Positions 2,368-44,398 are shown, counted from the first letter of the stretch. The stretch: DNA of 64,000 bases from Escherichia phage RB69 (NC_004928.1), one strand, 5' to 3'. Numbers and translations are program-made. The notes: generated from the sequence alone by a model not told the origin.

Positions 2368-3330
2368 TTATTTCCAAGTCAGTTCGCAGGTCAGTTGAAG
2401 AAGCATATACATAACATGTAATTCAATATTACTTGCTAGTCCATGAAACTTATTATTTTCGCCTGCAATTTCGTAAAGCGAAATAATACTTTTACCAGGT
2501 GCAACTTGGTCATAACATTCTGAAACTAATTTATCGATGAACCATGAATAATCTGCAGCATATTTTGGAGCTAATGCACGAAGTTGTTTGATATCTTTGT
2601 TCTTCATTGCTTCGATAACATCAGAGACTGTGCCACGGTCATTAGTTACGATAGACAGAATACCTGCATCAAGAACACCTTTAGACGAGTACTGGTCTAA
2701 TTGGCCAATTGTACGACGAAAGTCCGGGAAGTTCTTTTTAACCAGAGCTGCAACAACTTTCATATCAGCGATTTCGATATTTTCATTCTTACAGATTTCA
2801 ACCATACGATGAATCATTTTCTTCATCATCGAGATTTTATCTTCTTCGGTTGGACGTCCGAATTCGATAACTCGACAACGACTACGTAACGGTTCAATAA
2901 TTCCATCGATGTTGTTAGCAGTAATAATAATAGAACAGTTACTAGAGAATTCTTCCATAAACGTACGAAGGTGACGTTGTGATTCGGCGAGGCCACTACG
3001 GTCAAATTCATCAATAACAATAACTTTCGGCTTGCCTTCCATTGAGACTGAACGAGCAAATGCAGTTAACGGACCGCGTACAAAATCAATTTTACAATCA
3101 GAACCGTTGACGAACATCATTTCAGCGTTGATATCGTTACATAATGCTTTTGCCACGGTTGTTTTACCGGTACCAGGAGATGGAGAGTGTAAAATAATAT
3201 GAGGAAGTTTTCCTTTAGATACTAAAGACTTGAATGTTTCATGGTCATACGCAGGCAGAATACATTCGTCAATGGAAGAAGGACGATATTTCTGTTCTAG
3301 AATGTGTTCTTTGGAATTGATAGTAATCAT
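2368..3330 (-). CDS. 44: clamp loader large subunit gp44 (AAA+ ATPase)
   Basis: 320 aa; Walker A SPGTGKTT; strong similarity to T4 gp44. Confidence 0.9.
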
Positions 3331-40894: not shown

Positions 40895-40924
40895 AATATC
40901 TCAATCATAAGCCCATGTACGCGT

Positions 40925-41200
40925 TTATTTCATATTATCGAAATATTCTTCAGCGATTTCGACATTATTATGGTAAACTTTAGAAGACAGTTTAACATAA
41001 CCTTCAGCAGTGAACATGTTAATCACAACCTTTACAGTATACCACTGACCATCTTCATTACCCATTACTGCGTAAGTTTCAAACATCGGATGGTCAGGTC
41101 CAATAACTTTAATATCATTCACCGTACGACCGAAATCTTCTGGAACGCATTTCATAAAGAAGTTGAACAGTTCACCATAATTATCCATTTCATTCTCCAA
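40925..41200 (-). CDS. hypothetical protein
   Basis: 91-aa ORF. Confidence 0.45.
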   Translation of the reverse strand: MENEMDNYGELFNFFMKCVPEDFGRTVNDIKVIGPDHPMFETYAVMGNEDGQWYTVKVVINMFTAEGYVKLSSKVYHNNVEIAEEYFDNMK

Positions 41201-41390
41201 GTTTTTTCTGTATCGGTAGTTGATAGTTGTATAGTACCACGGAAGAACAGGGATGTAAACAGTTTTGTGAAAAAAATTTTTAAAAAGTTTTGTGGAATTC
41301 TAGGGCAGGGAGAGGAAATTAAAAGGTAGGATAATATATTATAAAGGGTATAAACTAAATGATGCCTAGAGAGGCCCGGAAAGGCCTAGA

Positions 41391-41420
41391 TACAAAAAAG
41401 CCCTATCATTTAGATAGGGA
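41391..41420 (-). terminator. rho-independent terminator (CCCUAUC..GAUAGGG then U6)
   Basis: hairpin followed by CTTTTTTGT on minus strand immediately after ORF ending at 41428. Confidence 0.55.
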
Positions 41421-41549
41421 TTTAAAATTATTTACCTAGTTTAGTTATTATAGCTTCGGCAGCAGCTTTTAGCTTAGATGCAGTGTTAATACGATTTTTA
41501 ATTTCGGTATACGCATCGCCAAGAACATCAAGGCTATCAGAATAAACAC

Positions 41550-41990
41550 TTACACTATTGCGTTCGCTATTTTGAATAGAACCTTTAGTTTTACGATCAA
41601 AATCAGTGTACACGTCTTGAAGACACGGGCTGCCTTCTTTGCATCATCCAATGCATCAAGAGCTTTATTCAAAGCATTGACATATTTTTTAGTGTCAAAC
41701 ATATTCTTAGAAATTTTAACAGGTGCACGTTCAGGAGTAGCTAAGGCGGATTTAGGAACCTGCGTGCCAGATGCCAGTTTCTTAGAAATTTTGAAAAACG
41801 CTTTATTGAAACTATTTTCTTGACTCATCGTAAAAGAACTAGTATCGATGTTATACATTTCAATAGCTTTAGCTTTCCACTTAAGAAAATCGCCACGGTC
41901 TTTTGGATCCAAGTGGAAGAATACTTTAGTAAGATCTGCTTCAGATGGTAATTTTGCTGCTTCGGTTAAAAATTCGGCATAGGTTTTCAT
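41550..41990 (-). CDS. internal-protein-like protein with capsid targeting sequence; 3' end uncertain
   Basis: N-terminus MKTYAEFLTEA; a second frame (41428..41613) stays open to the terminator. Confidence 0.5.
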   Translation of the reverse strand: MKTYAEFLTEAAKLPSEADLTKVFFHLDPKDRGDFLKWKAKAIEMYNIDTSSFTMSQENSFNKAFFKISKKLASGTQVPKSALATPERAPVKISKNMFDTKKYVNALNKALDALDDAKKAARVFKTCTLILIVKLKVLFKIANAIV

Positions 41991-42080
41991 TTAAAATCCT
42001 TGAAATAATTTATCGGTTGGTTATTAATTATTTATTACTTTGTTATTATCAGTAACAGCATTCTCTGAGTGATTCAAACT

Positions 42081-42108
42081 AAAAAGCCCCAACCTTTCGG
42101 AAGGGGCT
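42081..42108 (-). terminator. rho-independent terminator, identical copy of 26135..26163
   Basis: GCCCCTTCCGAAAGGTTGGGGC then T5 on minus strand. Confidence 0.55.
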
Positions 42109-42159
42109 AAGCCTCGCGGCAACCTTGTCGGGGTTCCACCTGCTAAGGCAAGTGTTTGT

Positions 42160-42262
42160 ACGAAACGCCGGGATTCGAACCCGGTTATTAAGCAGTTGAC
42201 GCTACTCAATATTTTTAAAAGGCCATATCTCGACCATATCCGAACGTTCCGTCAAAAACGCT
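42160..42262 (-). ncRNA. tRNA-like structured RNA (canonical T-arm CCGGG-UUCGAAU-CCCGG with paired acceptor-like stem)
   Basis: GGTTCGAATCC T-arm motif on minus strand; about 90 nt between acceptor-like strands; does not fold into a standard cloverleaf by eye. Confidence 0.3.
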
Positions 42263-42419
42263 ACTCGACTTACGGCAAAGATATTTCCTCGAATCGATAA
42301 TTCGGTGCGCCGTTTCTGCTGTGATGTAAGGGGATATTAACGAATCATAAAGATTTATTAAGACCAGTCCTTACTCAGGGAACATCAGTCCGACGACTTA
42401 CCGGTAGCGACCCGGCTTC

Positions 42420-42764
42420 TTATTTTGACATATTATCAATTTGCTCTCGACGCCGTCGCCATAGATTAATCGCTTCATTAACACATTCGGCGTTTGGTAT
42501 ATGACGGCAATAATATAATGATTCGCGTTTCTGGAACCGATGTTGCAATGGGATTTCGTTTAAAAGGTCTTTACGGTCAAAGTATTCAAAACTAGTTAAC
42601 CCGGAACGGTTTTTAAGAAACTTCCAATGTCCGAATTCATTTTGAAAATAAACATAATCAGCATGTTGATATAATGAATTAATTAACCTATCGGAAATAA
42701 CTGTTTCACGTTCGTTAAAATAAAATGTTAAATCATGAACTACTAAGTAAACATTGCCTTTCAT
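42420..42764 (-). CDS. hypothetical protein embedded between tRNA-like genes
   Basis: Track ORF 42420..42812 trimmed to MKGNVYLVV with SD GAGGAAAA; positionally analogous to segB in the T4 tRNA cluster but no endonuclease motif recognised. Confidence 0.45.
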   Translation of the reverse strand: MKGNVYLVVHDLTFYFNERETVISDRLINSLYQHADYVYFQNEFGHWKFLKNRSGLTSFEYFDRKDLLNEIPLQHRFQKRESLYYCRHIPNAECVNEAINLWRRRREQIDNMSK

Positions 42765-42782
42765 ATTTTCCTCACTTAAAGT

Positions 42783-42861
42783 TGGTCGAGACAGAAGGAT
42801 TCTAACCTTCAACCTACGGATTAGAAGTCCCCGTTGCTCTATACAATTGAGCTATGCCTCG
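42783..42861 (-). tRNA. tRNA-like gene, Arg(UCU)-like anticodon context with non-canonical loop
   Basis: 7-bp acceptor stem, D-stem GCUC/GAGC, T-arm GAAGG-UUAGAAU-CCUUC, encoded CCA; anticodon arm only folds with a 9-nt loop. Confidence 0.4.
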
Positions 42862-42867
42862 AATATA

Positions 42868-42941
42868 TGACCCAGACCAGATTCGAACTGGTAACCTTTC
42901 CCTTATGAGGGGACTGCTGCTAACCGTTGAGCTACAGGGCC
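42868..42941 (-). tRNA. tRNA-like gene, CAU anticodon context (Met/Ile), imperfect D-arm
   Basis: T-arm ACCAG-UUCGAAU-CUGGU, acceptor stem with one U-U mismatch, loop CUCAUAA. Confidence 0.35.
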
Positions 42942-43020
42942 TAAATAACTTTCTATTATGAAAGGCACTTTAGAGTACCTTTGGTAATAGAGGGTATGAA
43001 TTAATAATAACACATAATTC

Positions 43021-43536
43021 TTAAAGCAAATCAATCATTTTAACAGTTGGCAAAACGATTTCTTCTTCAATATAAGCAAATTCAACACATTCAACTACAC
43101 GCAAGAAATCATAATCATAATATTCAGAAGCATGACCAAGAATACCAATGAGACCTTCTGATACCAAATATCCATTCTCACGAAACAGGTCGAATACACA
43201 CGATTCGTCTTCTTCAGATTTATTACCAAGGTCGACTTCAATATCAAAGACCTTTTTAATGAATTCTGGATAAAGCTGGTCTGAGAACAGTCCTTCAACC
43301 AAGTATTCATAGATTAAAAGCGAGCAATCACTGAATGGTGTATTACCGCAATAACGTTCGGCTTTGGTGCTAGAATGACGGCTCTTAAATTTCTTCAAGA
43401 GATATTTAAACTGTTGGAGCTCATGCTCTTCCACTTCAAACAATGTTTTGGTTTTATAGTTGTCACCATCATTTTCATAGGTAGTGACATCAATTACGTA
43501 ACCCTTAGGAATTGTACTGCCTAAACAAATATTCAT
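43021..43536 (-). CDS. hypothetical protein
   Basis: 171-aa acidic ORF. Confidence 0.5.
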   Translation of the reverse strand: MNICLGSTIPKGYVIDVTTYENDGDNYKTKTLFEVEEHELQQFKYLLKKFKSRHSSTKAERYCGNTPFSDCSLLIYEYLVEGLFSDQLYPEFIKKVFDIEVDLGNKSEEDESCVFDLFRENGYLVSEGLIGILGHASEYYDYDFLRVVECVEFAYIEEEIVLPTVKMIDLL

Positions 43537-43540
43537 TTAC

Positions 43541-43831
43541 TCACCGTACCATATTAATGTAATTATATTCAATGCAACGTAATTTCAAAGGATTCTTGAA
43601 AATATCATATTCAAGAGGGCCTTTTTCTGTTTCAATAAAGAAATCAAAGTTAACTGTGTTAAATTTATCGTCTTCACAGAGTAATTTAACTTGCGAAGAC
43701 GAACGGTCGATATAAACCTTTTCAACCTCAAAGTTAGTCAGAATACCATAGTCATTAACTAGTGCTTTAGCTGCACGTTGGTCGCTTTCATATCCGTTCT
43801 CAATGGACGATACTTTAGCATAAAGAATCAT
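43541..43831 (-). CDS. hypothetical protein
   Basis: 96-aa ORF. Confidence 0.45.
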   Translation of the reverse strand: MILYAKVSSIENGYESDQRAAKALVNDYGILTNFEVEKVYIDRSSSQVKLLCEDDKFNTVNFDFFIETEKGPLEYDIFKNPLKLRCIEYNYINMVR

Positions 43832-44190
43832 GAATGTTCCACCACTTCAAAGGTATGAGCATCAACAATATGATACCAGTCAAAATTTTCTTCTGCGTTT
43901 TTATAAATTTCGCGAAGAGCTTCAACAGTTTTTCCTGTAGCAACAAGATCGTCAATACCGCCAAGAGGATAACAGTCGTAACCAGCAAACAGAAGGAAAT
44001 TAATAGTTTCTGTAGGTTCTGGATGCAGTGTACCATTGTCATCGACTACTTCAAAGAACATATAACCAGGCGATTTAGATTTAATCCAAGCCCATGCTTG
44101 AGCTGCTGAATCAAATGGTTTGCGTATCAAACGACAATCAGGGTCTTTAGAAGGATTTGCTTCAAAATCCGCATATACGTGATATTTCAT
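43828..44190 (-). CDS. hypothetical protein
   Basis: Track ORF 43828..44223 trimmed to MKYHVYADF. Confidence 0.45.
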   Translation of the reverse strand: MKYHVYADFEANPSKDPDCRLIRKPFDSAAQAWAWIKSKSPGYMFFEVVDDNGTLHPEPTETINFLLFAGYDCYPLGGIDDLVATGKTVEALREIYKNAEENFDWYHIVDAHTFEVVEHS

Positions 44191-44191
44191 T

Positions 44192-44398
44192 TTACTCACC
44201 TTTTGCAATTTTATCCATAACAATAGCGATTAAACCGATTAGAAATGCTACTACCAATGAGATAGAGTTTTCAGTTGTTGTCAGTAGTCCACAAATGAAT
44301 CCTACAAACATCGAAAAACTAAAAGCCATTGAAGCAATTACTACAGCAACATTACGAATCAGTTCAGCGCGTTTCATTTTATTTCTCCATTTACTCAT
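44192..44398 (-). CDS. small membrane protein
   Basis: 68 aa, two hydrophobic helices. Confidence 0.45.
   Translation of the reverse strand: MSKWRNKMKRAELIRNVAVVIASMAFSFSMFVGFICGLLTTTENSISLVVAFLIGLIAIVMDKIAKGE

Follow-up and report, generated by a model that had tools for sequence, protein, structure and literature searches.

What is the run of tRNA-like elements found on the minus strand of Escherichia phage RB69 (NC_004928.1), and are its members working transfer RNA (tRNA) genes or the remains of such genes? An earlier note on this DNA, made from the sequence alone, had described a degenerate cluster whose members could be decaying tRNA genes, a frameshift-suppressor-like tRNA or cleavable processing signals. 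Here we refer to the whole stretch of 64,000 nucleotides (nt) that was analysed as the window. Our findings indicate that minus strand 42941..42081 is very probably the tRNA/stable-RNA operon of T-even phages in the form carried by Mosigvirus, the RB69-like genus, with one strain-specific lesion in the gene for tRNA-Arg. The operon type is already described, and the descriptions of T4 and T2 cover everything in it except this small lesion. The features are as follows, with lengths in nt or amino acids (aa) and the basis of each call in brackets.

42868..42941, minus strand: tRNA-Ile2, anticodon CAU, putatively of the lysidine type that reads AUA, no encoded CCA (ARAGORN, Rfam RF00005, T4 homology)
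42783..42861, minus strand: tRNA-Arg, anticodon UCU at 42825..42823, encoded CCA at 42785..42783 (ARAGORN, Rfam, family covariation)
42829..42832, minus strand: run of four G in the 5' strand of the tRNA-Arg anticodon stem, two G in relatives; strain-specific 2-nt insertion (relatives, Logan contigs)
42420..42764, minus strand: open reading frame (ORF) of 114 aa, phrog_3355, RB69ORF150c / T2 gene T2_136 (PHROG, T2 homology)
42303..42423, minus strand: orthologue of rnaD (T4 species 2 RNA), 121 nt, directly upstream of rnaC (homology to annotated RB10 rnaD)
42159..42297, minus strand: orthologue of rnaC (T4 species 1 RNA), 139 nt (boundaries from T4/RB10 annotations)
42114..42158, minus strand: conserved 45-nt 3' trailer with small hairpins, including GCC-GCGA-GGC (T4-to-Mosigvirus alignment)
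42081..42107, minus strand: intrinsic terminator, GCCCCUUCC-GAAA-GGUUGGGGC followed by UUUUU (read from the sequence)

Read along the minus strand, the order is tRNA-Ile2(CAU), a 6-nt spacer, tRNA-Arg(UCU) with its CCA, a trna.2-like ORF, rnaD, a 5-nt spacer, rnaC, the trailer and the terminator. ARAGORN calls exactly two tRNA genes in the 64-kb window, both on the minus strand, and together with Rfam it places them at the very coordinates at which the UCU (Arg) candidate (42783..42861) and the CAU candidate (42868..42941) had been proposed. Over 1000 T4-family phage genomes match the 1.2-kb region; Mosigvirus, the genus of RB69, gives the best matches (95-97%), and no record is identical to the window. 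In line with this, 42425..42070 is 93-98% identical to the rnaD/rnaC stretch annotated in T4 and RB10, and likewise in other T-even genomes. In relatives, the same two tRNA genes are annotated as tRNA-Met or tRNA-Ile and as tRNA-Arg, and Mosigvirus papers commonly list "two tRNAs, Met and Arg".

The CAU gene gives a full-length match to Rfam RF00005 (52.4 bits, E 2e-8 over the whole window, model positions 1-71 of 71), above the gathering threshold of 29 bits. It is identical to the T4 tRNA-Ile gene at 72 of 74 positions, the latter scoring 53.9 bits, and has the uninterrupted 5-base-pair (bp) anticodon stem closing a 7-nt loop that is expected of a canonical tRNA. The imperfect D-arm that had been ascribed to it is real insofar as its D-stem consists of three Watson-Crick pairs and a C.C mismatch. 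T4 tRNA-Ile shares this C.C, however, as it does the acceptor-stem U.U and the basal G.A of the anticodon stem and, given the identity of 72 in 74 and the same mismatches, the arm is a native design common to T4 and not a mark of decay. The CAU anticodon, together with the identity to a CAU tRNA that accepts isoleucine and not to tRNA-Met, places the gene as tRNA-Ile2. The acceptor pairs C4:G69 and C5:G68, which we take to be determinants for TilS, are present. In this regard, the CAU tRNAs of T4-like phages have been assigned to the lysidine-modified, AUA-reading tRNA-Ile (Nolan et al., PMC1524935), and the annotations of BASEL phages give the CAU gene as tRNA-Ile/ATA. As judged from sequence, the CAU tRNA would be a lysidine-dependent isoleucine acceptor that reads AUA.

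At the other end of the operon, the boundaries of rnaC and rnaD were transferred by alignment from the T4 and RB10 annotations. The rnaC copy is identical to annotated T4 rnaC at 136 of 139 positions and lies at the same place, the 3' end of the operon. The element that had been noticed at 42160..42262 as a tRNA-like molecule of the T4 stable-RNA type is therefore correctly classed, being the rnaC orthologue, but those coordinates span only the 3' two-thirds of the 139-nt RNA. With distant Moonvirus and Karamvirus homologues added, the consensus fold comprises (i) an acceptor-like stem in which the true 5' and 3' ends pair with each other and one pair alternates between A-U and G-C, (ii) a T arm (42184..42168, CCGGG-UUCGAAU-CCCGG), in which one stem pair occurs in three types, and (iii) a 10-bp hairpin together with (iv) a long 5' hairpin. 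The structure holds 47 pairs, with 95.7% of cells paired and 14 pairs showing compensatory change, a level that none of 500 shuffles reaches. This covariation indicates that rnaC is a conserved, structured, tRNA-like RNA. As for the canonical T-arms attributed to the cluster, the UUCGAAU of rnaC bears the description out, while tRNA-Arg has a T loop of UUAGAAU instead.

Against this background, the possibility that the whole cluster consists of decaying pseudo-tRNAs or mere processing signals, the remnant of a larger T4-type tRNA array, deserves hardly any credence. It could draw on the fact that the genus retains two tRNAs against eight in T4 and ten in RB10, and on the mismatches in three stems of the CAU tRNA. 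The T4 tRNA-Ile gene has those very mismatches, however; both tRNAs are unchanged base for base across more than 140 Mosigvirus genomes, and compensatory changes keep the structure of rnaC as far away as Moonvirus and Karamvirus. The label of a degenerate cluster consequently does not hold for the whole: the CAU tRNA matches T4 tRNA-Ile at 72 of 74 positions, the tRNA-Arg family covaries and rnaC has its 14 covarying pairs. Decay survives as a description for one element of the three, tRNA-Arg, whose lesion is compatible with an early stage of it, and not for the rest of the cluster.

We therefore turn to tRNA-Arg, the only member in which the operon departs from its relatives in this way. An alignment of alleles from Mosigvirus, Tequatrovirus (RB10, T2), Jiaodavirus and Winklervirus has the cloverleaf paired in 100% of cells and compensatory change in six pairs, including four of the five anticodon-stem pairs, as is characteristic of a well-covarying canonical tRNA. 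All relatives keep an uninterrupted 5-bp anticodon stem and a 7-nt loop; the window copy does not. The canonical Mosigvirus tRNA-Arg(UCU), as found in phiC120, APCEc01 and ChristianSchoenbein, is identical to the window copy at all 77 of its positions, including U19/A56 and the encoded CCA, and differs from it in the anticodon stem, whose 5' strand has GG against the GGGG of the window. The Rfam score falls by 14 bits as a result, from 71.1 for the canonical allele (ChristianSchoenbein) to 57.1 for the window allele (E 1e-9 over the whole window, model positions 1-71 of 71), and ARAGORN puts the anticodon at the unusual position 37.

The two extra G residues that the earlier note had remarked on are genuine and found in this strain alone. 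Many Mosigvirus genomes equal the window over the 176-nt tRNA block (42950..42775) except for GG in place of the GGGG at 42832..42829. More than 140 Mosigvirus records carry GG, and over 500 full-length relatives from several genera show no length change in this stem. The GGGG allele has no match in 50,697 phage records, among the viral contigs of IMG/VR, in JGI metagenomes or in GTDB genomes (one per bacterial or archaeal species). A gapped-pattern search returned at least 120 viral contigs with GG, and 121 of 121 matches in the loci retrieved up to that stage lack the insertion.

Could the insertion be a sequencing or assembly error, the real phage having a canonical tRNA-Arg? In favour of this, the change is one of homopolymer length and falls where the RNA is strongly structured, many relatives match the other 174 nt of the tRNA block exactly, and a probable error of the record lies 1.2 kb away, where the loss of 1 nt at 41624 splits a gene intact elsewhere. 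The Logan assemblies, which were located through the exact protein of the 114-aa ORF (the protein of 171 aa encoded upstream led to the same runs), nevertheless make this account extremely improbable. Contigs from SRR29299745, SRR29299747 and SRR29299748 all carry GGGG, reading GCAACGGGGACTTCTAATCC, and are 99.9% identical to window 44264..40921 over 3.3 kb; the first of them is recorded in four samples. They differ from the window at three positions, the 1-nt window deletion at 41624 and a CA/TC difference at 41573-4, and because of these mismatches they are independent and not copies of the record. Homopolymer indels are not generally over-represented in the window, as judged by a small-indel scan against ChristianSchoenbein.

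The gene affected at 41624 lies downstream of the operon (41427..41990, minus strand) and is similar to RB69ORF149c. In the Logan contigs, as in PhAPEC2, it encodes 187 aa; in the window it is split into ORFs of 146 aa and 61 aa. The deletion and the neighbouring CA/TC swap at 41573-41574 are, from the sequence comparison, probably an error or a variant of this record.

In the window tRNA-Arg, the 5' strand of the anticodon stem, ACGGGGA, faces UCCGU, and the GG insertion prevents a clean 5-bp stem with a 7-nt loop. RNAfold predicts a minimum-energy cloverleaf of -23.2 kcal/mol, in which a stem ACGGG/UCCGU with a G.U pair closes the 9-nt loop GACUUCUAA. Folds with a 7-nt loop reach -17.5 to -20.2 kcal/mol, 3-6 kcal/mol worse. 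The claim that the molecule folds only with a 9-nt loop thus stands as regards the lowest energy; it does not stand as an exclusive statement, since Infernal and ARAGORN both keep a 7-nt loop at that cost, the former by bulging two G within an otherwise perfect 5-bp stem with loop CUUCUAA, the latter by a slipped stem in which a G.G mismatch is accepted. The Infernal (Rfam) check that had been proposed accordingly gives a full-length match of 57.1 bits, with a 7-nt loop obtained only through the GG bulge.

In the RNAfold ensemble, the probability of the pair closing the 7-nt anticodon loop is 0.009 for GGGG against 0.80 for the canonical allele, and that of the T-stem and cloverleaf 0.24 against 0.88. 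The predicted ensemble is dominated by a misfold in which the anticodon loop UUCUAA pairs with the T loop UUAGAA in a helix lengthened by the extra G residues (0.75, compared to 0.11 in the canonical allele). In Mosigvirus tRNA-Arg the tertiary pair U19:A56 replaces G19:C56, with a D loop of UUGUAUA and the T loop UUAGAAU. The perfect complementarity between UUAGAA and UUCUAA appears as a side effect of this swap, giving rise to a competing helix that the GG insertion strengthens.

These predictions suggest, as somewhat more likely than not, that the insertion makes tRNA-Arg weak or inactive. Most likely, GGGG is a recent slippage mutation, from GG to GGGG, in a dispensable gene of one phage lineage. 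On laboratory hosts, T-even phages can grow without the tRNA region (PMC2330249), and for this reason a weakened tRNA-Arg would be tolerated. An older listing may also be relevant to the aberrant arm: in Table 4 of Nolan et al. (2006), the two tRNAs that tRNAscan-SE predicts in RB69 are Ile(CAU) and, in place of Arg(UCU), Gly(UCC) (PMC1524935). No fold with UCC at the centre of a loop was found for the window tRNA-Arg sequence, and the Gly(UCC) entry could be a mistake in the table or could stem from the way in which the aberrant anticodon arm affected the older program.

A milder possibility is that the insertion is a neutral polymorphism, forming a 2-nt bulge beside a normal 7-nt loop, with activity about that of the canonical allele. 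The Infernal and ARAGORN cloverleaves, in which the CUUCUAA loop is intact, speak in its favour, and so does the score of 57.1 bits, which exceeds those of the working T4 tRNA-Ile (53.9) and T4 tRNA-Arg (48.8). Besides, A20, C35 and U36, which we take to be the identity elements for arginyl-tRNA synthetase (ArgRS), are unaltered in the sequence. Yet not one of more than 500 full-length relatives has a length change in this stem, and the folds with a 7-nt loop, 3-6 kcal/mol less stable, make up less than 1% of the predicted ensemble. We hold neutrality to be possible but doubtful.

A different reading is that the expanded arm is adaptive, allowing escape from a host anticodon nuclease or shifting the frame at AGA-containing sites. 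Classical frameshift suppressors have an extra base within or beside the anticodon. In the window tRNA-Arg, the loop is enlarged in the minimum-energy fold, but the added G residues lie 5' of U33 and the context CUUCUAA is unchanged; with the extra bases in the 5' strand of the stem, not by the anticodon, and in one strain only, the suggestion of a frameshift-suppressor tRNA gains no support. A parallel would be the sufD-type frameshift-suppressor and engineered expanded-loop tRNAs (8-10-nt loops), which resemble the window's most stable predicted fold in having an anticodon loop of more than 7 nt. Unlike them, the window tRNA-Arg has extra G residues derived from the stem and no extension of the anticodon, and it comes with neither evidence of selection nor a candidate frameshift site.

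For the adaptive reading in general, the 9-nt loop of the minimum-energy fold may be joined by the proposal that anticodon-loop changes help phage tRNAs to evade tRNA-cleaving defences (PMC10264068) and by the finding that T-even tRNA genes can have an anti-defence action (PMC13096335). Set against these, the allele occurs in a single strain whose flanking tRNA-block sequence is identical to that of relatives, and hence there is no sign of spread or selection; the extra bases are those of the stem, and the ensemble is predicted to misfold. We regard an adaptive arm as most improbable, and the narrower proposal of a functional tRNA-Arg(UCU), its arm enlarged or bulged, that is retained for nuclease escape or altered AGA decoding, as scarcely less so. 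If true, this working, reshaped allele would be a natural example of a phage remodelling a tRNA anticodon arm by a change of length.

Returning to an operon with a strain-specific lesion in tRNA-Arg, several points weigh against our interpretation. Base modifications, tertiary contacts and protein binding do not enter the thermodynamic predictions; with its 7-nt loop intact, a stem that carries a bulge could still function, and 57 bits remains far over the 29 bits set as the Rfam threshold. The consecutive accession numbers of the Logan runs make a single laboratory stock their probable source; they rule out a base-calling error but do not show the age of the mutation. In addition, a simple scan found no minus-strand promoter, and the start of transcription is inferred from T4 only.

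The same simple scan reported no minus-strand terminator either, though one is visible by eye, and the scanner missed it because of an internal UU/UU mismatch. PhAPEC2 has a terminator annotated at the homologous site. In T4, the cluster is transcribed as a single precursor that ends after the species I RNA gene (PMC2330249). By analogy, one long transcript would run through the whole cluster and end at the 42107..42081 hairpin, from which, as in T4, host RNase P, 3' exonucleases and the CCA-adding enzyme would release two tRNAs and two stable RNAs, CCA being added where it is not encoded. The trailer ahead of the terminator is almost invariant from T4 to Mosigvirus, and its hairpin, GCC-GCGA-GGC in the window and GCC-GCAA-GGC elsewhere, keeps a GNRA loop. 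Gaprivervirus DK-13 has the trailer too, following an ORF, and no rnaC homologue was detected there in the aligned stretch.

The two tRNAs would read AUA and AGA, the rarest sense codons of Escherichia coli. AGA makes up 18.4% of arginine codons and AUA 16.1% of isoleucine codons in the window ORFs, whereas the figures are 3.6% and 3.9% in a sample of 47 genes of E. coli K-12. With both codons used 4-5 times more by the phage, the two tRNAs match its demand. A further role may be to stand in for host tRNAs that tRNA-cleaving defences attack; T-even tRNA genes can act against such defences of the host (PMC13096335, PMC10264068). The insertion offers a natural test of whether a phage AGA tRNA matters. 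If the window represents the widely used laboratory strain of RB69, tRNA-Arg is probably not fully functional in that strain, a point that could bear on comparisons of host range and of tRNA-targeting defences.

The second stable RNA, rnaD, had been absent from the elements first listed. It folds into two hairpins, one at the 5' end and a long one whose ends are invariant and whose tip varies, the centre having diverged. The 3' end (42303..42305) reads CACCG in the window, PhAPEC2 and T2, CACCA in T4 and RB10, and CAG in ChristianSchoenbein; if rnaD requires a CCA end, post-transcriptional repair would be needed in phages with CCG or CAG. T4 rnaC and rnaD accumulate late in infection and their function is not known (PMC3014915, PMC9697503, PMC12685909), and accumulation of a stable rnaC of about 140 nt during infection has been shown for T4 only (PMC9697503).

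Other assignments for this part of the cluster were discarded. An acceptor stem for rnaC with an internal ACGGAACG strand pairs in T4 and the window but has an A.C in Moon and RZH and loses four of eight pairs in VPA32. The Rfam search of 41900..43100 at E<=10 returned no family for rnaC or rnaD, and its tRNA-Sec match over rnaC is at chance level (16.6 bits, E 3.9). Relaxed ARAGORN settings gave a "tRNA-Ile(GAU)" at 42468..42392, which takes the rnaD 5' hairpin as a T arm together with coding sequence and disagrees with the annotated boundaries and the covariation, and a "tRNA-Leu with intron / 4-base anticodon" over rnaC, an artefact for which the T4/RB10 annotations and the covariation give other boundaries.

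Unannotated rnaC homologues were observed between tRNA genes in the large arrays of Citrobacter phage Moon (604..755 of retrieved stretch L125) and Klebsiella phage VPA32 (523..671 of L127). From these Moonvirus and Karamvirus copies, rnaC is far more widely spread than annotation suggests. Most Mosigvirus records annotate neither rnaC nor rnaD, and in many the CAU tRNA is named "Met". We propose to annotate the operon as tRNA-Ile2(CAU), tRNA-Arg(UCU, aberrant anticodon arm), trna.2-like ORF, rnaD and rnaC.

The 114-aa ORF had been placed where T4 has the homing endonuclease gene segB. The ORF exists, at 42764..42420, and its stop codon overlaps the rnaD 5' end, but its slot follows tRNA-Arg and nothing in it points to a homing endonuclease. 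T4 segB lies between tRNA-Ile and tRNA-Arg; the 114-aa ORF, like T2_136 in T2, occupies the interval from tRNA-Arg to rnaD, and because segB sits elsewhere the ORF is not its counterpart. Its only PHROG, phrog_3355, has no function assigned, and it is present in 424 phage records. It corresponds to the "trna.2 ORF" of T2L, since primer #24 of Brok-Volchanskaya et al. (2008, PMC2330249) matches its start. No family was found at E<=0.1 in Pfam or NCBIfam, a GIY-YIG domain included, and no match among PDB sequences; a single-sequence AlphaFold model (predicted local distance difference test score, pLDDT, 63.6) compared with PDB by Foldseek gave no informative match.

Within the genus, PhAPEC2 and ChristianSchoenbein have the overall operon order of the window, plus an extra ORF and a second terminator after rnaC. 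An additional segment of about 540 bp (2646..3148 and 2561..3025 of retrieved stretches L001 and L002) follows the rnaC terminator in these two phages, in phiC120 and in CCU7, and is lacking in the window (at about 42080). It encodes an ORF of 154 aa in PhAPEC2 and ChristianSchoenbein, and the second terminator copy is annotated in PhAPEC2. PhAPEC2 also has a third tRNA (Asn), and its CAU and Arg alleles are of the T2/RB10 type. From this third tRNA, the T2/RB10-type alleles and the variable extra segment, the region appears to be modular within the genus.

The comparison with T4-type clusters that the earlier note had called for shows the same strand, the same 3' end order and an rnaC and tRNA-Ile nearly identical to those of T4. 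The flanks of the T4 cluster, Trna.2-4 and ipI upstream and e.8 downstream, are those of the window, and both clusters end in tRNA-Arg, rnaD, rnaC, trailer and terminator. T4 differs in having eight tRNAs, against two in the window, and in carrying segB, which the window lacks, having a trna.2-like ORF between tRNA-Arg and rnaD; the window tRNA-Arg is another allele, and rnaD ends in CCG in the window and in CCA in T4. T2 and T2L (PMC2330249) share with the window the gene order, the lack of segB and a homologous ORF (about 68% protein identity) between tRNA-Arg and the stable RNAs. T2 departs from the window in its nine tRNAs, in a further ORF between tRNA-Ser and tRNA-Met (the trna.1 slot of T2L), and in tRNA-Arg and CAU alleles of the RB10 type.

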